A stretch of 8,436 bases of DNA from a virus. Taxonomy: Duplodnaviria > Heunggongvirae > Uroviricota > Caudoviricetes. Shown piece after piece: positions 1 to 8,436 of the stretch. The notes under the pieces are model-generated. The model made no database searches and was not told where the DNA came from. It saw only the letters and a list, made by a program, of their open reading frames with translations. The stretch is taken from positions 1-8,436 of the IMG/VR virus record IMGVR_UViG_2548876860_000011; one strand, written 5' to 3'. Each line of letters begins with the position of its first letter. Position 1 is the stretch's first letter. Made by a program: the position numbers and the translations under genes.

Positions 1-216
1 ATGGCTGAAATGAAAAAAATATCTTTGGTTTCTGAAGTCAATACCTACATCAATACCCATCAGTGGCCTGGCAAAGCTGCTATTGGTCGTCTGAAAGGCG
101 AGGAACTGGCGCAATATAATTTGTGGCTGGATTATCTGGACGCACTGGAGCTGATCGATACTTCCGGTGCGCCAGATATTGAATGGCCTACGCCTCCGGC
201 AGTTCAGGCCAGATGA
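1..216 (+). CDS. tail fibre assembly protein, C-terminal portion (probably 5'-truncated by the window edge; alternative cassette of the invertible segment)
   Basis: The 71-aa ORF ends ...LWLDYLDALELIDTSGAPDIEWPTPPAVQAR, which parallels the C-terminus of the 197-aa Tfa on the opposite strand (...LNAVLDYIDAVTATDTSTAPDVIWPELPEA). The two ORFs converge and overlap at 188-216, as U/U' genes do in Mu G-segment-type inversion regions. Tfa proteins are normally much longer than 71 aa, so the ATG at position 1 is likely an internal Met. Confidence 0.5.
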   Translation: MAEMKKISLVSEVNTYINTHQWPGKAAIGRLKGEELAQYNLWLDYLDALELIDTSGAPDIEWPTPPAVQAR

Positions 217-781
217 CATCCGGCGCGGTGCTGGTATCTGTTGCCGTCACCGCGTCAATGTAATCCAGCACAGCGTTAAGTCTGGTTGTTTCTGCCTGCG
301 TCAGTTTATGTCCGGCCTGCAATTTCAGTTGAATCAGACTGATGGAAGCCATTGCTGCATCAATCAGTGACTGGCGCTGTGCTTCTGCCGCGTCTACTGC
401 GGCACCGTGTTGTGCCTCAGTATCTGTCACCCATTTCTCACCATCCCATTTATCATATGGCGTTAACGGTGAAAGCGTGACATAACCGTTTTTGATGGCA
501 CCGATATAACCCACTGTAACAGCAGCACCATTTTCGATTGAGTAAACAGTCTCATTGCGATGGTCTTCTTCATGGCTCCATCCCTTACCTGTAAATACTG
601 CCACTTTTCCCGGAATGTTTTCGCCCGGGTCAATACCAGTGGAACAGGCGGGCATACTTACGCCAGTATTAATATATTCATCAGACCAGCCCGTATACTC
701 AGATGTTTCAGCATCATAATAAAAACAACGCATATCGCCCGGCACTGTAGCCAGCCCATTTTCATCAAAAACAGGTTTCAT
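188..781 (-). CDS. phage tail fibre assembly protein (Tfa family)
   Basis: 197-aa ORF. Its ATG (779-781) overlaps the stop of the upstream tail-fibre ORF (TAATG on the minus strand), which suggests translational coupling. The C-terminal motif matches the Tfa family. Position next to a tail-fibre C-terminal cassette and a pin invertase gene matches e14/Mu/P1 architecture. Confidence 0.8.
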   Translation of the reverse strand: MKPVFDENGLATVPGDMRCFYYDAETSEYTGWSDEYINTGVSMPACSTGIDPGENIPGKVAVFTGKGWSHEEDHRNETVYSIENGAAVTVGYIGAIKNGYVTLSPLTPYDKWDGEKWVTDTEAQHGAAVDAAEAQRQSLIDAAMASISLIQLKLQAGHKLTQAETTRLNAVLDYIDAVTATDTSTAPDVIWPELPEA

Positions 782-1275
782 TATTTAGCCCTCACCAGAA
801 AGTTAAATGCAATATTTCGCGGTCTGACAGCAACAAAATTCACACCATCACCCACCGAGTTACTGGTGAAATTAAATCGTGAAAATCCTGGCTGATTTCC
901 GGCGATGCCATCATGAAAGTTAATTGCGTGTCCCGCACCTTCGCCTATATTCCCGGCAAACTGAGAAAAGTTTGTAGCGGCCTGCCAGCTTAATAATTCG
1001 CGACCACCGTCTGCACCTCGCCCGTCATCCCAGATACGAATGAAATCACCGCGGGCTTCAGGTAATACCAGCGAAGGAAACACTTTCGCCAGCACAGGGT
1101 AATCAGAGGCAGAAAATTTCGTCCCGTTGAACTTCAAAAACACCATACTGGACCAGCTGTCGATTACAGTATTTGGCATTGCGGCGGAGGGCCAGAAGAA
1201 TGGAACGCCAATAGCTGGAGCACCTTCTACCAAACCAACGTTTACGAAAATGAATATTTCAGGTGCAAATGGCAT
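781..1275 (-). CDS. tail fibre protein C-terminal variable-domain cassette (promoterless, silent in this orientation of the invertible segment)
   Basis: 164-aa ORF, Gly/Asn-rich as in tail-fibre receptor-binding tips. No room exists for a constant N-terminal part, because pin starts at 1305 on the other strand. A hix/gix-like crossover site lies inside its 5' end (1225-1250), so the ATG at 1275 is probably not a real start. Equivalent to stfE' of e14. Confidence 0.65.
   Translation of the reverse strand: MPFAPEIFIFVNVGLVEGAPAIGVPFFWPSAAMPNTVIDSWSSMVFLKFNGTKFSASDYPVLAKVFPSLVLPEARGDFIRIWDDGRGADGGRELLSWQAATNFSQFAGNIGEGAGHAINFHDGIAGNQPGFSRFNFTSNSVGDGVNFVAVRPRNIAFNFLVRAK
1225..1250. other. site-specific recombination crossover site for the Pin/Hin/Gin invertase (hix/gix/pix-like)
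   Basis: TTCTACCAAACCAACGTTTACGAAAA is a 26-bp imperfect inverted repeat with the conserved AAACC-NN-(G/C)GTTT centre. Compare hixL TTCTTGAAAACCAAGGTTTTTGATAA as remembered. It sits about 55 bp upstream of pin and inside the 5' end of the tail-fibre variable ORF, where these sites normally lie. Confidence 0.55.
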
Positions 1276-1304
1276 GCTCCCGGCTTTTAGCGATGGGATT
1301 GATC

Positions 1305-1856
1305 ATGCTTATAGGCTATGTACGGGTGTCAACAAATGACCAGAACACAGCATTGCAAAGAAACGCGCTCGAGTGTGCAGGATGTGAACTGATTTTCGAA
1401 GATAAGATCAGCGGTAAGGTGTCCGACAGACCAGGATTAAAAAAAGTGCTCAGGACGCTATCAGAAGGCGATACGCTGGTGGTATGGAAGCTGGATCGCC
1501 TCGGTCGCAGCATGCGGCATCTTGTCGTGCTGGTCGAAGAAATGAGGGAGCGAGGGGTAAACTTCCGTAGCCTGACCGACAGTATAGATACCTCAACACC
1601 AATGGGGCGCTTTTTCTTTCATGTCATGGGGGCGCTTGCCGAGATGGAAAGAGAGCTTATTGTTGAGCGAACACGGGCTGGCTTAGCTGCTGCGCGCGAA
1701 GATGGTCGGATCGGCGGCAGACGACCAAAGTTAACCGCAGAAGAGTGGGCTCAGGCTGGAAGGTTGATTGCTGCAGGTGAGTCTAGAAAACGTGTGGCTA
1801 TAATTTATGATGTAGGGGTGTCGACGCTATACAAAAAATTTCCTGCGCAGCGTTGA
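1305..1856 (+). CDS. pin: serine recombinase, DNA invertase of the Pin/Hin/Gin/Cin family
   Basis: 184-aa product MLIGYVRVSTNDQ... with the catalytic Ser in VRVSTNDQ, the conserved LVVWKLDRLGRS and SLTDSIDTSTPMGRFFFHVMGALAEMERELIVERT blocks, and a C-terminal HTH (VAIIYDVGVSTLYKK). The ORF track starts at an upstream GTG (1263), but the ATG at 1305 gives the canonical N-terminus. Confidence 0.9.
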   Translation: MLIGYVRVSTNDQNTALQRNALECAGCELIFEDKISGKVSDRPGLKKVLRTLSEGDTLVVWKLDRLGRSMRHLVVLVEEMRERGVNFRSLTDSIDTSTPMGRFFFHVMGALAEMERELIVERTRAGLAAAREDGRIGGRRPKLTAEEWAQAGRLIAAGESRKRVAIIYDVGVSTLYKKFPAQR

Positions 1857-1984
1857 GAAAACGCCACCGCGTCGTCGTATGCAAGAACGGGCGGCGACGA
1901 ACTGGCGAACGTTCGATAGTGCGAGTATTGAATGATTGCCAGTCACGGCGGATTGTACTTAAGCAATATGACGGTTCAAGGCGT

Positions 1985-2227
1985 TTAATCTGAAACCAGC
2001 CACATATCAGCCTTTTCAAACATTTCCTGAACAGTACGGCTTATCTGTTCCTTCTCATGCTTGCTGGCGTCAGTGTTGATCGCCGGCAGTGTCATCATCG
2101 GTTTTACCCGGACATCAGCATCAGGGAAGACCCGGTGAACCCTCTTAGTCAATTCGCCCAGAATGATATCTTTTGCACCGGGCAGGCCATCAAAATTCCT
2201 TTTGTCATAAACGAGTTCCACGAACAT
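1985..2227 (-). CDS. DinI-family DNA-damage-inducible protein
   Basis: 80 aa, MFVELVYDKRNFDGLPGAKDIILGELTKRVHRVFPD...EKEQISRTVQEMFEKADMWLVSD. This is collinear with E. coli DinI (81 aa, ...KEDKQRISEILQETWESADDWFVSE). RBS AGAGG lies upstream of the ATG at 2227, and a LexA-box-like site sits 16 bp upstream. Confidence 0.8.
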   Translation of the reverse strand: MFVELVYDKRNFDGLPGAKDIILGELTKRVHRVFPDADVRVKPMMTLPAINTDASKHEKEQISRTVQEMFEKADMWLVSD

Positions 2228-2242
2228 TGCTTATTGCCTCTT

Positions 2243-2262
2243 TACTGGATGGATACACAGTG
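2243..2262. promoter_or_regulatory. LexA (SOS) box-like operator in the divergent dinI-like / orf80 intergenic region
   Basis: TACTGGATGGATACACAGTG fits the CTG-N10-CAG core of the LexA consensus TACTGTATATATATACAGTA, with CTGG in place of CTGT. It lies between the divergent starts at 2227 (-) and 2302 (+). Confidence 0.5.
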
Positions 2263-2301
2263 CTTGTGCTGTTTTTTTATCCAGTGTTCAAGAAGGGGTT
2301 A

Positions 2302-2544
2302 ATGATGCCACAACGTAGCGATATTGAAATAGCCTGGCATGCTTCGATACAGCGAGAACCGAATGGCCGGAAGACTGTCACCACACAGCGGTTTGTCCAG
2401 GAACTGGGTAAGGTTAACTGGCACTGGACGATGAAGCAGGCCAACGATTGGATAGAATGTTATGTGACAACATTCCGCGATGTATCAACGCAGGAAGGCG
2501 AGAACCGAACCTTTCAGCTGTTCAATCCAAACGGAGGACTTTAG
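2302..2544 (+). CDS. hypothetical small protein (80 aa), probably SOS-regulated and co-transcribed with the downstream umuD'-like gene
   Basis: ATG at 2302 with AAGGGG RBS 4-10 nt upstream. The stop at 2542-2544 is 2 bp before the umuD'-like ATG. Codon composition is typical of the surrounding genes. No motif recognised by eye. Confidence 0.5.
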   Translation: MMPQRSDIEIAWHASIQREPNGRKTVTTQRFVQELGKVNWHWTMKQANDWIECYVTTFRDVSTQEGENRTFQLFNPNGGL

Positions 2545-2546
2545 CC

Positions 2547-2976
<430 letters not shown>

Positions 2977-3645
2977 TCATATTGGCGTTATTAGTTCGGC
3001 GCCCTGATTTTTCACATTCCCGACGGCACGCGTTACGGCGTGCCATATAAATTTATCAGCCGGTACAACACCGTCGGCTGCAATTTCCGCTGCTTCTTTC
3101 CCTCCAACATCCTGCCTCATCCATTCACGCGCGGCTTCCGGTAGCAGTACCAGTGGTCGTCTGTCGTGAATATCAACCAGTCCTTTGTCAGCTGCAGCTG
3201 TAACTATCAGGAAACCTTCTGCTTCATCTCCACGTTCGAATGGTGTGCTGCCGATCGCCGCCATAAAAATCGGCTGACCGTCTGCCCGGTGAATAAAGTA
3301 GGGTTGTTTTTGGTCGCCTTCCTTTTTCCACTCATACCATCCATCAGCAAAGCAAATTGCGCGGCCATGCTGCCAGAGTGGTTTAAACATTCTGCTGGTG
3401 GCAGCAGTTTCAGACCGTGCATTAATGAGCGGCGGTTTATCCCACCAACCGGGGGCGTATCCCCAGATAACTGGATCAAGATGCAACTGCTCATCACGTT
3501 CGCTCAGAAGCAGAACTTTTGTTCCTGGCGCTACGTTGAATCTTCCGATGGGTTCTGGATCGTATGGAATATCGCGTTCTGATTCATCAGCGAGAAGGGC
3601 AAGATAATCTTCACGGGTCATTGACTGTGAAAAGCGTCCACACAT
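2977..3645 (-). CDS. SOS-response-associated peptidase (SRAP, YedK family; abasic-site processing protein)
   Basis: 222-aa product begins MCGRF (the Cys2 nucleophile hallmark of SRAP) and is collinear with E. coli YedK as remembered (...DPEPIGRFNVAPGTKVLLL...WGYAPGWWDKPPLINARSETAATSRMFKPLWQHGRAICFADGWYEWKK...). Strong RBS GGAGG precedes the ATG at 3645. It is convergent with the umuD'-like gene and abuts it with no spacer. Confidence 0.85.
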   Translation of the reverse strand: MCGRFSQSMTREDYLALLADESERDIPYDPEPIGRFNVAPGTKVLLLSERDEQLHLDPVIWGYAPGWWDKPPLINARSETAATSRMFKPLWQHGRAICFADGWYEWKKEGDQKQPYFIHRADGQPIFMAAIGSTPFERGDEAEGFLIVTAAADKGLVDIHDRRPLVLLPEAAREWMRQDVGGKEAAEIAADGVVPADKFIWHAVTRAVGNVKNQGAELITPI

Positions 3646-3879
3646 AGAAACCTCCAGCCGTATGTCAGACTGAAAGTATAGGGCAGTTAGAAAAAGTGGT
3701 GCACACCGTTAAAGATTTAAAAGGAGCATGTAAGGTAAATCGGAATGATGGTTTTGTGAATTGATGAATTCCGAAAGTGAAAAAGATACTTAATCATTGT
3801 GTGCTGGCGATACGGGGGCAACATTTGACGGGGTTTTTCCCCTGTAATTCCCCATTGCTTCCCCGTTCAGAAAACAGGC

Positions 3880-3904
3880 AAAAAAACCAGCCGTAACAGG
3901 CTGG
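3880..3904 (-). terminator. rho-independent terminator (native tRNA terminator carried in repeat copy 1; also terminates the 4043-4828 gene)
   Basis: On the minus strand: CCAGCC-tgttac-GGCTGG hairpin followed by T7. Confidence 0.7.
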
Positions 3905-3919
3905 TTCTTCGAGGATTTT

Positions 3920-3964
3920 TGGTCGGCACGAGAGGATTTGAACCTCCGCCCCCCGACACCCCAT
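3920..3964 (-). pseudogene. tRNA-Pro 3' fragment (about 45 nt: anticodon-proximal part, T-arm, acceptor 3' strand and CCA); not a complete tRNA gene
   Basis: Minus-strand sequence ATGGGGTGTCGGGGGGCGGAGGTTCAAATCCTCTCGTGCCGACCA has T-stem/loop GGAGG-TTCAAAT-CCTCT, acceptor 3' strand, discriminator A and CCA. It matches the 3' portion of E. coli proL tRNA-Pro(GGG) as remembered, with one mismatch. The 5' half is absent; flanking sequence diverges after 3964. Confidence 0.7.
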
Positions 3965-4042
3965 AGTGTCGTGCTAATATTCTGATGGCCTATATGCGTC
4001 TACAGTAAGTTGATAGCATCATTCGTCGGTCGCTTCGTAGTC

Positions 4043-4828
4043 TCACATACGGATAAAATTTTTTCTATTGATTTTGTCTCTATCAGAGCCATAAATGATG
4101 GTTGCAAAAAAACGACCTAATTCAAGATGGTGGAAGTGATTATCTTTTGCTTGAACTGTCATTGAGTCTAATATGTTATAGATGCATTCTATGATATGAA
4201 TAACTAATAAAGTGCGATAACCAGCAAGCATTTCACTTCTTTTAAGTAAATAATTTAAATCCCCTGCAGAGTTTATATGGTTTCTGTCTTCATCATAATA
4301 TCCAAGCACATAGCATGGCAGTGTTTCACCATAGCTTCGGTATTGCTCGCATTTTTTATCAATTATATTTTTTTGTCTTTTTGTTAATATTTTGTCGTAA
4401 ATGCTCTTATCGATTTCATTATACCATTGCTTCATGGGATCATTGTCGTTGTCATTAGTAATGAAATCAATATTACTATATCTTGATGAATTTGCAAAAT
4501 TAGTTAACAACTCCATCACTCTGTAGTGAATTTCATTTAAGCCAGAGGGAGAATCAACTCTCTCAATGACTAGGTTAAATAACTTGCTTAAGTTATGACC
4601 GTAATCTCTTAATTTTTTGCGTGATGTATATTTTCCATTTTTATTATAATCATCAAGCATAAGGCAAAGTTTCATAAGCCTTTCTAATCCTAAACTGATG
4701 CCGGATAATGCTTGAAAATACAATCCTCTACTTGCAAAATTTGCTTTCCTTAGGGAAGTGAGCCCTATGCCTAATAATTGTCTTGAAAAGTCAACCTCAT
4801 CAACAAATCTTCTGTATTTTTCATCCAT
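4043..4828 (-). CDS. hypothetical protein (AT-rich cargo gene; possible phage-defence/abortive-infection candidate, function unknown)
   Basis: The ORF track gives 4043-4858 (271 aa), but position 4856-4858 is a TTG with no RBS. The in-frame ATG at 4826-4828 has GAGG 6-9 nt upstream, giving 261 aa starting MDEKYRRFVDEVDF. GC content is roughly 30%, against roughly 50% in the prophage genes to the left. No catalytic motif recognised by eye. Confidence 0.6.
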   Translation of the reverse strand: MDEKYRRFVDEVDFSRQLLGIGLTSLRKANFASRGLYFQALSGISLGLERLMKLCLMLDDYNKNGKYTSRKKLRDYGHNLSKLFNLVIERVDSPSGLNEIHYRVMELLTNFANSSRYSNIDFITNDNDNDPMKQWYNEIDKSIYDKILTKRQKNIIDKKCEQYRSYGETLPCYVLGYYDEDRNHINSAGDLNYLLKRSEMLAGYRTLLVIHIIECIYNILDSMTVQAKDNHFHHLELGRFFATIIYGSDRDKINRKNFIRM

Positions 4829-4892
4829 AAAAACCTCAGTCAGCCAATTAATATTCAAGAATGATTTCTATAAAGAACTAATCTAGTTAAAT

Positions 4893-4928
4893 CATCTGAT
4901 GTAATTAGTATTACAATACCATCAGACG
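4893..4928. promoter_or_regulatory. nested palindrome upstream of the 4043-4828 gene (candidate operator)
   Basis: CATCTGATG-(18 nt)-CATCAGACG inverted repeat, with an inner GTAAT-tagt-ATTAC palindrome, centred about 80 bp upstream of the ATG at 4828. Confidence 0.3.
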
Positions 4929-5014
4929 ACATTGAAGCAGTATTGTGCCTTATCTACCCTATGTACGTCCATTGATAAAAATCTGCGCTTTTCGCAGTGG
5001 GGTCAACCGTAAGC

Positions 5015-5136
5015 TAATTTCCCCATTGCTTCCCCGTTCAGAAAACAGGCAAAAAAAACCAGCCGTAACAGGCTGGTTCTTCGAGGATTTTTGGTCAGCA
5101 CGAGAGGATTTGAACCTCCGCCCCCCGACACCCCAT
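5015..5136 (-). repeat. direct repeat copy 2 (~122 bp): flank + intrinsic terminator + tRNA-Pro-like fragment
   Basis: About 97% identical to 3845-3964. Confidence 0.9.
5051..5076 (-). terminator. rho-independent terminator (copy 2; downstream of the 5333-6301 gene on the minus strand)
   Basis: CCAGCC-tgttac-GGCTGG hairpin followed by T8 on the minus strand. Confidence 0.7.
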
Positions 5137-5150
5137 GGCGGTGATCTACC
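5092..5150 (-). pseudogene. degenerate tRNA-Pro-like fragment (about 60 nt from the D-loop region to CCA; 5' part not recognisable)
   Basis: Same T-arm and acceptor 3' end as copy 1, with G to A in the acceptor strand. The match to tRNA-Pro extends further (GGTAGATCACCGCCATGGGG vs GGTAGCGCACCGTCATGGGG) with mismatches. No convincing 5' acceptor strand. Confidence 0.6.
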
Positions 5151-5332
5151 TTCTCATCAAGGGTAACCATGTGCCAGAAGCAGCCCTTGCGCACATTGGA
5201 TGGGTATCAAATAATGAAGTAGGTCAACTTTATTAAATAAAATTGTGTTGGTTCAGATGATCGAATGGGAATGAATAGTTTATTACTTTTGGTGACCGCA
5301 AGCGCGATCACCTTCGATTTGGTGGCAATTAC

Positions 5333-6301
5333 CTAGAATGATGCACAATCTTTAAGCTCTTTTTCTAGTTGTTCAACCAAGTCACAGCATTTTTTGATAA
5401 CATCTTTAACTGACTCTGAATCTAACTTATGAAAATTACCATTTTTTGTTTTACCTGCTCGATGAACTAAGTCATGCCTAATTAACACGCTTTTATAAAC
5501 TTCTGTGAAAACAGGGAATTTAATACCAAAGGTATCTCGATACATGCCACTTACTTTTGGCAGATTATGATAAAGAACACTCTTCATAGACTCTATCGCT
5601 TGAGACTCTATTTGTTCATGCCTTATAAATAATTCAGAAAGTAAGAATTTTTCTGTATTGTAATCTTTGAAGGTTTCAACAAAATTTCTCAAATTAGTTT
5701 GGCTACCATGAATTAGGGAAATAAATCTGTCACATAAATATGTTTCCAAGGAAGTTATTGTATTGGCATATAGCATATACGATATTTGTATTTGTAAAGT
5801 GCTATCAATTTTTAACTGAGCATCATTTAGTTTTATGGCGTTCTGCATACTATTTTGGAATGTCATATAGACATCTCGTTCAGATAGCGTTCGATCATCA
5901 GAGTACTGCATATCAATAACATCTAGAATGCGCTGTTCGATTAATGAAGGTCTATTCAACTGTAATATATCTATAGTCGCATGTCCTCGCTCAGTTAAAC
6001 CTTCTAAATATCCATTTTTATTTTGTTTCATATGTTCTGAAAAACTTTCATTTAAAGGATTTAGAAGTAATGGTTTGCCATTTTCATCGAGAGGAAACTG
6101 ATCTTTTTTAATCATGCTACATGCCTTACAAGCGATGAGCAGGTTGTCTGTAGCATCTTGGAAGTCAGTATACTTTGATTTTGGGAAAAAACGATCAACA
6201 TCCGCCATCAATGGTTCATAAAGTTTAGTGCCACAGTAAGCACATTGATGCTTAAACTTCTCCCATAGTTCAAGTTTAAACGTTTTATAATTCTTATTCA
6301 T
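5333..6301 (-). CDS. hypothetical protein with N-terminal HNH-like Cys-rich motif and C-terminal HEPN-like Rx4H motif (candidate nuclease/RNase toxin or abortive-infection effector)
   Basis: 322-aa ORF with ATG at 6299-6301 and AAGGAA RBS. N-terminus: CAYCG...DVDRFFPKSKY...DNLLIACKACSMIKKD, an HNH-type CxxC...D-x-D-[H]...N...CxxC layout, but with Arg where the catalytic His normally sits. C-terminus: SVLIRHDLVHRAGK, i.e. R-x4-H as in HEPN RNase motifs. Very AT-rich. Occupies the slot next to icdC where K-12 e14 carries mcrA. Confidence 0.7.
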   Translation of the reverse strand: MNKNYKTFKLELWEKFKHQCAYCGTKLYEPLMADVDRFFPKSKYTDFQDATDNLLIACKACSMIKKDQFPLDENGKPLLLNPLNESFSEHMKQNKNGYLEGLTERGHATIDILQLNRPSLIEQRILDVIDMQYSDDRTLSERDVYMTFQNSMQNAIKLNDAQLKIDSTLQIQISYMLYANTITSLETYLCDRFISLIHGSQTNLRNFVETFKDYNTEKFLLSELFIRHEQIESQAIESMKSVLYHNLPKVSGMYRDTFGIKFPVFTEVYKSVLIRHDLVHRAGKTKNGNFHKLDSESVKDVIKKCCDLVEQLEKELKDCASF

Positions 6302-6745
6302 TGAATAGTTCCTTTATATTCTTGACTTGATTGTTTGTTTGCCAATTTAAGCCAAAGACACACGACTTTAATTGGGCTTGAATCATAGTTATATGTAATC
6401 TATTAAGCAAACACTTTTCATTAATAGCATGAGATAACGCTCAATTCTTTATTTTCCGGGAGTGTGTAACTTCATATCCACCTCTCACTCACAGCGTACG
6501 TTATTGGCGAAAAATTTAGTTAAGCCATTGATAGTTTGTGAAAACACGCATGATTTAAAATCCCTTTGCCGTGAAGGGGCTGATAGGTACAGGCACTTGT
6601 TTTTGCCCTCTAAAACGGTTATCAAAACCAAAAAACATACATTGATAATCAATAGGTTAGGGGAAAGATAAAAGCCAGTTGATTTACAATAAAATTATAG
6701 GATTATTTTTATTTATCATGCGGTTGTATATGAACCATCTAACTA

Positions 6746-6910
6746 CTGTTACGCCATATGGGCTGGACTGAAGCCGCAGACCTGATTGTTAAAGGTATGG
6801 AAGGCGCAATCAATGCGAAGACCGTAACCTATGACTTCGAGCGTCTGATGGAAGGCGCTAAACTGCTGAAATGTTCAGAATTTGGTGATGCGATCATCAA
6901 GAACATGTAA
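6746..6910 (+). pseudogene. icdC: displaced 3'-terminal fragment of icd (isocitrate dehydrogenase), the att-site duplication at the right end of the e14-like element
   Basis: In-frame translation [55 protein letters not shown] matches the Icd C-terminus as remembered. An in-frame stop precedes it at 6740-6742 and no icd-like coding sequence lies upstream (AT-rich intergenic DNA). The length (about 165 nt) matches the icdC remnant of K-12. Confidence 0.8.
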
Positions 6911-6933
6911 TCACTACATGTGTTTAATATTGC

Positions 6934-6967
6934 AACGGGCGTATAACACGCCCGTTGTTTTATTTAT
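6934..6967 (+). terminator. rho-independent terminator of icd
   Basis: AACGGGCG-tataaca-CGCCCGTT perfect 8-bp stem followed by GTTTTATTTAT, beginning 24 nt after the icd stop. Confidence 0.75.
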
Positions 6968-7012
6968 GTAGGTACTATTAATAGCATATCGAGCATATTT
7001 ATATAAAACCCT

Positions 7013-7336
7013 TTACTTGAGCCCATATGGGCATATTTTTATAATGCAACTATTATGCAAACATTTATTTGTTATTTTTCTTTCTCCTGGAGGACACTCT
7101 TGACTGCTTTTGAGTAGACTCCATAAATCCTTGTTGAATGGTGCGATGTTATAAATAGTAATAGGATATTCTTTATCTTTAAGGATAATTCCAGATTTAA
7201 CCGGTGTAAATATACTGCCAGGAGGGAGAAATATAGTAGATTGATACCAGATGATCATTTTCATATTACCCCATATGGCTGAAAAAGATATGCCGCATGA
7301 AGGTTGAATTATCGTGTCAATTACTATCCACTTCAT
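7013..7336 (-). CDS. iraM: anti-adaptor protein IraM (inhibitor of RssB-mediated RpoS degradation)
   Basis: 107-aa AT-rich [35 protein letters not shown]... Length, sequence as remembered and position immediately right of icdC match E. coli iraM (elbA). Confidence 0.75.
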
Positions 7337-7773
7337 TTGTTATGTCTTATCCCACGGTATTTAATATACTTCATTTGGATGTTCATTTCTTTATTTTGCA
7401 TATGAGTATATTACCCCTTCAAAAAATAAATTAATTAAAACGATTGCTTATATAAAACAAAATTTAAAGCAAGGAATCTCAATGGATGTTAAACAAAATG
7501 AGATTTAGTGAAAACAATAAATTATTCACTTCGTTTTAGATTTGTTTAGCTATAATGTTATACATTCAAATGACTGAACATCCTGTAATTAAAACATAGC
7601 CTTTATGCTACTTTGTGCCAATTTGCTAAACATTATGGTTGCCTTTTTATATAACGATAATAATGAATATAAGCATGACATGAGAATAAGGTTTCAATTT
7701 TTGAGTTATATAGGAAAGGTTTAACCTGTTCCTGGCTAAAATACATATAACTGGATGATGACTAAACCAAAAC

Positions 7774-7828
7774 ACATGTGCGTTAAGTATTGAAACGGGC
7801 GTATGGCACACCCGTTGTTTTTATAAAT
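7774..7828. repeat. second, diverged copy of the icd terminator region (hairpin AACGGGCG-tatggca-CACCCGTT + T-run)
   Basis: ACATGTGCGTTAAGTATTGAAACGGGCGTATGGCACACCCGTTGTTTTTAT is about 80% identical to 6917-6967. It lies between iraM and ycgX, oriented as a plus-strand terminator although both neighbours are minus-strand genes. Confidence 0.6.
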
Positions 7829-8031
7829 ATATTAACCGTTATAAAATAACGTATAGAAAGTCAAGTGATCACATTTCAAATATCAATTTGATAGTATTGG
7901 CATGGTGATTATTTATGGGTAGCAATAAAAGGACAGTATTTATCATCCATAGGGATAGTCTCTGTACTTTTATTCCCATTATGCTAATGCCTTACTGAAT
8001 TATGAAGCATTTCTTAAGCATCCAACTTTAG

Positions 8032-8436
8032 CTAGATTAATGGTTTATTATTTTCTACATCTTCAATATATAAAAGCGTATTATCAATGGCGTAGTAACT
8101 GCGTTTGTTATGATTAACATCAGTAACCCACCGGAAAACGCCCGCGCCTGCTAGTGTTGAACAGTATTCCCGAAATGTAGATTTTCCGCAAATATGAAGC
8201 AATGCGGCCTCTTTTATTTTAGCAGGGTTCTTGGTCGTACTAACTTTTAACAGGTTCCTGGTTCCTCTTAATAACAAAACCGTGTCATCGTGAGTAATAA
8301 TTCTGATGTTATCCGTAGCCAGATAATAAATGTAATGTGCAATACGGTGATGTTTTAATTCTGAATAAAACCAGGAGAAGTTTTGCTCTTTTCTCACTTG
8401 CTCAAACATCTTTTGAAAAACAACGACCTGATCCAT
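8032..8436 (-). CDS. ycgX: YcgX-like protein (DUF1398 family), host gene
   Basis: 134-aa ORF starting at the window edge (ATG at 8434-8436 on the minus strand). Length and position after iraM match the K-12 order icdC-iraM-ycgX. Sequence recognised only by context and approximate memory. Confidence 0.65.
   Translation of the reverse strand: MDQVVVFQKMFEQVRKEQNFSWFYSELKHHRIAHYIYYLATDNIRIITHDDTVLLLRGTRNLLKVSTTKNPAKIKEAALLHICGKSTFREYCSTLAGAGVFRWVTDVNHNKRSYYAIDNTLLYIEDVENNKPLI

Follow-up and report, generated by a model that had tools for sequence, protein, structure and literature searches.

Tandem arrays of integrative and conjugative elements (ICEs) and cis-mobilizable elements (CIMEs) form by accretion at attachment (att) sites, with CIMEs flanked by att copies, and the ends of prophages are hotspots for morons and defence genes, as in the P2 and P4 hotspots and the b region of lambda. 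Here, we analysed a stretch of 8,436 nt from a tailed phage (Caudoviricetes; IMG/VR record IMGVR_UViG_2548876860_000011, positions 1–8,436), hereafter the window, which carries two nearly identical direct repeats, copies A and B, each containing the 3' half of a tRNA-Pro gene, within an e14-like prophage integrated at icd. Each repeat proved to be the phage-borne side of a phage attachment site (attP) for the tRNA-Pro gene proL, and both are relics. An attP that carries a replacement gene end is established (PMC10111431), and proL is listed as a prophage site of E. coli (PMC8767318); the open literature searched on proL phages gave nothing beyond that listing.

The site in the window resembles the anticodon-loop type of tRNA-gene attP, which serves tyrosine integrases with a lambda-Int-type arm-binding domain: sequence identity begins in the anticodon loop and extends to the 3' end, the anticodon stem likely provides inverted core sites around a loop-sized overlap, and the block adjoins the integrase gene (int) in a free phage, Flotzy. 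The P' arm has three putative arm-type repeats set close together, which recall P'1–P'3 of lambda. It differs from that type in having neither a P arm nor a cognate integrase, and copy B is short of one motif. As a whole, the prophage resembles the e14/phage 21-type icd prophages (K-12 e14 ends in pinE-mcrA-icdC), with xisE/intE beside icd, an icd 3' pseudogene, and pin and tail-fibre genes ahead of the cargo. The closest other icd-end prophages in the E. coli set have mcrA between pinE and the icd pseudogene, a slot that in the window holds DinI, a frameshifted umuD-like gene, an SOS-response-associated peptidase (SRAP) gene, relic A, the hypothetical gene hyp261, relic B and an HNH endonuclease gene. 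In common with ICE/CIME tandem accretion, att-derived direct repeats bracket a segment without integrase; the window differs in that its repeats share the P' arm, one of them truncated at a non-specific point, and in that the segment is a single moron with no related arrays in the searched data. Prophage-end morons are likewise variable, AT-rich, self-contained genes with their own terminator, located ahead of the att site and after the last structural genes, and hyp261 homologues occupy a P2-like gpS/gpV slot and a P4-like satellite, whereas the predicted cargo terminators of the window are recycled att relics. The array goes back to a well-known kind of site, the tRNA-targeting attP that brings a replacement gene end and putative arm-type sites, which survives here as a relic in a mosaic prophage, and the presence of two copies around one moron is unusual but lineage-specific, a case of ordinary phage mosaicism.

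The repeats and the DNA next to them comprise the following features:

3848–3964, minus strand: copy A, with the tRNA-Pro(GGG) 3' part at 3920–3964 and the terminator hairpin and T-run at about 3881–3910
3859–3864 and 3848–3853 (inside the repeat) and 3837–3842 (just outside), minus strand: three GGGGAA motifs of copy A, followed by the SRAP leader
5019–5136, minus strand: copy B, with the tRNA-Pro 3' part at 5092–5136 and the terminator at about 5052–5082
5030–5035 and 5019–5024, minus strand: two GGGGAA motifs of copy B, the third missing and the P' arm truncated
5137–5181, minus strand: degenerate stretch resembling a tRNA-Pro 5' half, immediately upstream of copy B
3965–4042, minus strand: spacer of 78 nt between the hyp261 stop codon and copy A
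4906–5018, minus strand: segment of 113 nt that links the truncated P' arm of copy B to the hyp261 moron

Copies A and B form a single repeat with one mismatch and one indel, and their identity of 98–99% over 117 nt is far beyond chance. The repeat search returned the pair as two segments, 3880–3964/5052–5136 (85 nt, 99%) and 3848–3886/5019–5057 (39 nt, 100%), and blastn of the copies gave 98.3% over 117–118 nt. The differences are a C/T in the acceptor 3' strand, which is stable in all available arrays, and an indel in the A/T run. Stretching the repeat to 3845/5015 adds a shared TAATT and one more indel, in agreement with the identity of ~97% given in a preliminary description made from the sequence of the window, whose coordinates, strand and account of the repeats were correct. 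On the minus strand, each copy contains ATGGGGTGTCGGGGGGCGGAGGTTCAAATCCTCTCGTGC(C/T)GACCA, starting with ATGGGGTGTCGG and passing by way of GGAGG-TTCAAAT-CCTCT into the acceptor 3' strand with its final CCA. This part, which opens with the first anticodon-loop base, corresponds to the 3' 45 nt of E. coli K-12 proL, tRNA-Pro(GGG), with 1–2 substitutions. After the CCA come GAAGAACCAGCC-TGTTAC-GGCTGGTTTTTT(T), a terminator-like hairpin with its T-run, and then ~35 nt more. The hairpin of copy A has a 12-pair stem (−17.5 kcal/mol, z = −4.9) and, being GC-rich, followed by a T-run and located 3' of a gene on the same strand, is predicted to be an intrinsic (Rho-independent) terminator; its stem varies in a compensatory manner from lineage to lineage (CCAGCC/GGCTGG, GCAGCC/GGCTGC and native CCAACC/GGTTGG), and the hairpin is kept in all phage versions. 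ARAGORN called 0 tRNA genes in the window and Rfam gave no tRNA match there at E ≤ 1; neither copy is a tRNA, which bears out the earlier statement that neither is a complete one. The GGGGAA motifs recur at 11-bp spacing, and the repeat ends between the second and the third. Comparison of the 78-nt spacer with a P arm, with a tRNA 5' half and with every fetched locus brought up no significant similarity; the 113-nt segment, which contains a small terminator-like hairpin (4983–4997), was likewise without a match in any fetched locus.

The distribution of the repeated unit was surveyed over 5426 complete E. coli genomes. Its first 85 nt match the native proL locus in 5419 of them; native loci match this part alone, with a terminator ~88% identical, and the last 35 nt of the unit are absent from the native proL flank. 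The full 120-nt unit gave matches of 91–93% in other genomes and was present at full length in only 72, always at prophage ends or in prophage interiors and never on plasmids, copies of the unit occupying a median of one and a maximum of four places per genome, all at proL or within prophages. Decisive evidence comes from strain 100181, in which the match is 93% and which has yejM, an intact proL/tRNA-Pro whose 3' half, terminator and flank are the unit, and then SRAP, umuC, umuD, DinI, genes for a HipA-family kinase and a DUF3037 protein, pinE and tail genes; toward the far end lie heads and early genes, an integrase with a lambda-type arm-binding domain, two cargo genes, the P arm, a displaced native proL 3' fragment (L009:32405-32449) and yejO. 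At the native yejM-proL target, the unit thus builds the attL in strain 100181, as it does in CX21. In the free phage Flotzy, the unit lies 140 nt after int and is followed by umuD-like, DinI and tail-fibre genes, which is the layout of an attP, and int lies 137–155 nt upstream of the unit in loci L060, L071, L091, L110 and L136. Because the unit forms the attL at native proL in strain 100181 and the attP in Flotzy, it is the phage-borne side of a proL attP, which upon integration replaces the 3' half of the tRNA gene and supplies a terminator. Terminator and flank are therefore phage-borne, as the P' arm of the attP, and not chromosomal.

The crossover point could be located through phage/host junctions, all of which diverge at one base, just before ATGGGGTGT. 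Lysogen ECONIH5 carries the same phage type as the native-proL lysogen CX21, but inserted 16 nt downstream of the stop codon of pdeF. In K-12, where this site is empty, it is a terminator hairpin, GCGGGCCGAC-ATTTCTC-GTCGGCCCGC, which mimics an anticodon stem-loop, and the ECONIH5 junction, CCGACAT followed by GGGGTGTCGG, falls at the very point that forms the left edge of both window copies. On account of this secondary-site junction, the exchange is placed within the anticodon loop, and the arms of the anticodon stem are likely the core sites. The pdeF loci are L007:6985-7045 in ECONIH5 and L144:7600-7760 in K-12.

For the P' arm, 106 distinct phage sequences were collected from IMG/VR with a pattern that had no motif requirement, and motifs were judged by inspection. 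Nearly all of the 106 have three motifs spaced by 11 bp, the first ~55–58 nt after the CCA; the exact GGGGAA triple is present in 37, and others have GGGGTG, TGGTGA or AGGTAA at the same positions. The P arm is conserved in every locus with a proL-type integrase upstream and contains one motif near −130, of the same type as the P' motifs in most lineages. As the P' and P-arm motifs change together across lineages, the GGGGAA-type motifs are read as putative arm-type sites of the integrase. The idea that the canonical P arm is tRNA-like was discarded, as the similarity was not significant.

The conserved P arm (ctaactcattgatgtatatag...gcactgtttg..tatacag), present in all loci with a proL-type int, is absent upstream of both window copies, and tblastn detected no proL-type int near them, the prophage encoding only xisE/intE, beside icd. 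Lacking both this integrase and the canonical P arm, the two copies are relics of a proL attP, not working attP sites. The same state, with neither P arm nor proL-type int, was found in AR_0128, L035, L051 and L139. L051 and L139 are viral contigs that have, in circular order, an IntE-like int, the icd attP, other DNA (2.4 kb or 0.66 kb between icd attP and relic), one relic and SRAP, and they represent the single-copy state in icd-type phages. The 45-nt stretch 5137–5181 upstream of copy B has homologues in the single-copy relatives AR_0128 and L035 (z about 8, 0/1000 shuffles), namely their pseudo-tRNA 5' halves, which in turn resemble the native tRNA-Pro 5' half with z of 4.8 and 3.2. A pseudo-tRNA 5' half next to copy A was also considered and rejected, its similarity not being significant.

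Relics recur in prophages that use other sites, namely in AR_0128, AR435, L051, L139 and apparently Salmonella Gifsy-2. A tRNA-Pro of 82 nt, away from proL and in a defective prophage, is annotated by RefSeq in AR_0128 (L005:8964-9045) and in 9 genomes like it; this is a relic with a less decayed 5' half, is not called by ARAGORN and is probably a pseudo-tRNA. Gifsy-2 has an internal tRNA-Pro 3' half with terminator and flank that is 80% identical over 128 nt (L049:1507-1637; NC_010393.1 44204-44334), ~1.5 kb in from the right-hand end of its record, and differs from the window in having a single copy and in belonging to another phage type. Downstream of it, tblastn flagged SRAP-like sequence. 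Gifsy-2 is known to integrate elsewhere.

The window is 98.9% identical to DNA of E. coli strain CDF6, whose prophage of ~42 kb has xisE/intE adjoining icd at one end and an icd 3' pseudogene at the other. Given these ends, the element in the window is an e14-like prophage integrated at icd, and the CDF6 annotation also confirms that the repeats lie between pin and icdC, as the preliminary description had placed them. The icdC region (window 6744–6961) is 81% identical to the icd attP of L051 and L139, which are free-form contigs. The prophages of CDF6 and 100181 have the same gene order and some identical proteins, including the portal protein WP_000466255.1 and WP_000424732.1, and CDF6 differs in carrying xisE/intE beside icd. 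SRAP starts ~275 nt after the CCA, as in native-proL prophages.

We favour, with a probability of about 0.8, a reading in which the repeats are halves of a proL attP that persist as relics in an icd-integrating e14-like prophage, to which a segment bearing a duplicate was added. Each repeat runs from the anticodon-loop crossover through a replacement tRNA-Pro 3' half and terminator into a P' arm with putative arm-type sites, and in proL-integrating relatives the unit rebuilds a working proL with its terminator upon integration. The window phage, a member of the same e14-like lineage, would have taken the xisE/intE module and turned to icd, its proL site being left as a relic; such a switch of integration module within the lineage is the simplest reading of the comparisons. 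The ancestral state would then have been icd attP, cargo, one relic and SRAP, and the window lineage would have gained a 1172-bp segment, so that a relic now stands behind each of two cargo genes. Of all this, the make-up of the unit, the relic state of both copies and the single-copy relatives are directly shown, whereas integrase binding to the motifs, the module switch and the present role of the copies are inferred.

The third motif and the SRAP leader, which in relatives come after the single relic, have been kept at copy A, and the pseudo-5' half of the lineage at copy B. The array can be described formally as a single relic plus an insertion of 1172 bp, made up of 113 nt (4906–5018), the hyp261 moron, 78 nt (3965–4042) and 117 nt that duplicate the relic. 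On its left, the duplication is bounded by the integrase crossover point, and its right edge lies within the P' arm, with no site-specific boundary. Two routes could have led to the second copy: one illegitimate join of sibling phages with different cargo upstream of the relic, or insertion at the relic of DNA with an att site, through an integrase acting in trans and with a later deletion. No parent phage, with only the HNH gene and a relic or only hyp261 and a relic, was found in the E. coli genomes, in IMG/VR or in the scanned metagenome and genome contigs, so either origin is conjectural.

This absence of a parent is one of several points that weigh against the favoured reading. If no integrase made the copy A junction, the match of the left edge to the crossover would be a coincidence. 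The arm-type role of the motifs is drawn from sequence, and the change from proL to icd from comparison between phages. Finally, the pseudo-5' half upstream of copy B could be the vestige of a captured attL or the normal core-proximal part of some attP sites. Read as proposed, the puzzling pair of tRNA fragments would be explained without a new kind of element and would mark a change of site from proL to icd in one phage lineage, the relics showing where cargo is added at a prophage end. The sequence map of the proL attP, with its anticodon-loop crossover, phage terminator and three P' motifs covarying with the P-arm motif, may, along with the natural secondary site that mimics an anticodon stem-loop and the recurring relics, help to annotate prophage ends and att sites.

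The competing explanation closest to the preliminary description is site-specific accretion, whereby a small proL-targeting element, or a whole proL-type phage later reduced by deletion, integrated at the relic by way of an integrase acting in trans and left the hyp261 segment as a remnant bracketed by att copies, like a cis-mobilizable element. Identity between the copies begins exactly at the anticodon-loop crossover, the integrase family does use secondary sites, as the pdeF lysogen attests, the array is formally an insertion into a single relic, and proL-type phages whose GGGGAA motifs match are in circulation in E. coli. We nevertheless consider this course unlikely, since the right edge, located past the second arm motif and short of the third, does not correspond to a site-specific boundary, no remnant of a P arm precedes copy A, and neither an integrase nor any other element gene lies between the copies. 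Two copies occur only in the window lineage among ~145 att copies in ~140 loci with an att core (the window, CDF6, Ecol_545 and the IMG/VR contigs L016 and L045, with the same array in metagenome contig L150), and no tRNA-Pro fragment accompanies the hyp261 homologues. No empty site, deletion or excised form was found in the 5426 E. coli genomes, in IMG/VR or in scans of metagenome and genome contigs; exact junction patterns in viral, metagenome and genome contigs returned array-identical loci or nothing, one metagenome locus ending before copy A, and megablast/blastn of 3965–5018 and 5137–6460 in E. coli matched only the same 8 array genomes. With a single two-copy lineage and hyp261 homologues devoid of the fragment, "gene + att copy" is not a mobile cassette in the available data. 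Several claims of the preliminary description are not supported. It had seen in the repeats the attL/attR pair of small proL-targeting elements, yet both copies consist of core plus P' in the same polarity, with no P arm and no proL-type integrase; it had taken the extension into terminator and flank as a sign of accretion, yet this is a regular part of the attP, found beside int in Flotzy and in the attL at native proL; and it had proposed that the cargo region was assembled by integration of small elements, yet the SRAP-umuD-DinI-pin block is the phage lineage's own, collinear with the proL-integrated prophage of 100181. Tandem cassette accretion as a general process is not supported, and a search for the same repeat flanking other cargo genes produced no other array among the ~140 loci. 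What stands is the proL 3' fragment and its att origin, borne out by the match to proL, the attL in 100181 and the attP in Flotzy; as for duplication of the fragment by integration, a single integrase event at the relic could have given rise to the second copy, the left edge being the crossover, and repeated integrations of small elements are not upheld.

Other explanations fare worse. That the relics might be landing pads, at which a co-resident proL-type integrase inserts or removes att-bearing DNA and of which the array would be the first trapped intermediate, appears quite improbable to us; if true, site-specific capture at a dead att site would be a means by which single defence genes are acquired by e14-like phages. 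In a weaker variant, the 117-bp terminator/att block may act as a homology anchor that drives cargo exchange among different phages. Very improbable is an active, integron-like cargo system in which the relics are functional sites and a proL-type integrase repeatedly swaps single defence genes: one copy does stand behind each cargo gene, the genes are defence-like (a PtuB-like HNH; hyp261 in P2-like and P4-like hotspots and in islands) and several prophages have variable cargo directly upstream of the relic, but the only lineage with two copies always has the same gene content, both copies lack the P arm seen in every integrase-bearing attP, copy B being one motif short as well, and the cargo of other phages is not individually flanked by copies. 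We find it scarcely credible that the copies are decayed phage-encoded tRNA-Pro genes and not att sites. The tRNA-Pro annotated in the homologous region of AR_0128, away from proL, and the stretch like a tRNA 5' half upstream of copy B and in relatives would fit such an origin; however, ARAGORN and Rfam return no tRNA in the window and ARAGORN does not call that of AR_0128, the conserved part starts at the crossover and reaches arm motifs that a tRNA gene does not need, and Flotzy has this same block as its attP, as prophages at native proL have it as their attL. Lastly, the flank could have been chromosomal DNA of a proL-linked island, or the repeat a dispersed element of the repetitive extragenic palindromic (REP), insertion sequence (IS) or miniature inverted-repeat transposable element (MITE) type, in keeping with the match of the first 85 nt to native proL in nearly all genomes. 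This is refuted by the comparison with the native flank, which lacks the last 35 nt, by the prophage context of the full-length copies, none of them on a plasmid, and by a copy number of at most four places per genome; neither a transposase nor terminal inverted repeats are present, and the REP/IS-derived origin that the preliminary description had itself named as a possible refutation does not apply.

The gene order in window coordinates was taken from the CDF6 annotation:

before the pin invertase: tail-fibre assembly genes
1305–1856: pin-type invertase
1985–2227: DinI
2431–2976: umuD-like S24 peptidase gene, frameshifted
2977–3645, minus strand: SRAP, the first phage gene downstream of copy A
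4043–4828, minus strand: hyp261, 261 aa from ATG, the sole cargo gene between the copies
5333–6301, minus strand: HNH endonuclease gene (322 aa) with PtuB-like N-terminal domain, the cargo upstream of copy B
about 6743–6910, plus strand: icd 3' pseudogene (icdC), the real attR of the prophage
beyond the icd 3' pseudogene: iraM and ycgX

This arrangement is present in only 8 of the 5426 genomes. Both cargo genes are candidates for phage defence. The HNH protein is standalone; its N-terminal domain is a PtuB-like HNH (PADLOC, 1.9e-23), its C-terminal half is unassigned, and no PtuA partner was found near its gene. The hyp261 product, whose mechanical open reading frame with a TTG start extends to 4858, has no Pfam or PADLOC match and is a candidate single-gene defence; its homology to a moron of a Klebsiella P2-like prophage covers 4054–4905 only. 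The family is rare (26 clusters, one homologue cluster having a precomputed PF05168 match), and, besides the P2-like slot, in Klebsiella, and the P4-like satellite, its members are found in integrative islands beside an AAA_21/AAA_15 ATPase. On the minus strand, the copies follow the cargo at 196 nt (HNH) and 78 nt (hyp261), and they now appear to act only as intrinsic terminators of these genes ahead of the SRAP/umuD block and as 117 bp of homology. Homologous recombination between the two copies could remove hyp261, but no product of this kind was observed.

The cargo immediately upstream of the att core is defence-like and varies among prophages: AR435 (L006) has SMODS and SLATT, AR_0128 (L005) a HEPN-domain gene and a hypothetical gene, and strain 100181 (L009:31079-32206) a RelA/SpoT-like gene. 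In Ecol_545 (L002:5620-6732) and strain C1, two of the 8 array genomes, IS421 interrupts the SRAP gene beside copy A, and both genomes contain a fourth match to the repeat. A further direct repeat, of 43 nt (6919–6961/7779–7821, 84% identical), brackets iraM, contains the hairpin ACGGGCGT...ACGCCCGT and gives a weak Rfam match to tpke11 (E = 0.033); contig L045 is without the segment between its two copies. Within the frameshifted S24/umuD-like gene, a (CAGC)n run at 2612–2663 counts 13 units in the window, as in CDF6, and 11 units in Ecol_545, a variation that could provide slipped-strand on/off switching of the phage umuD homologue.

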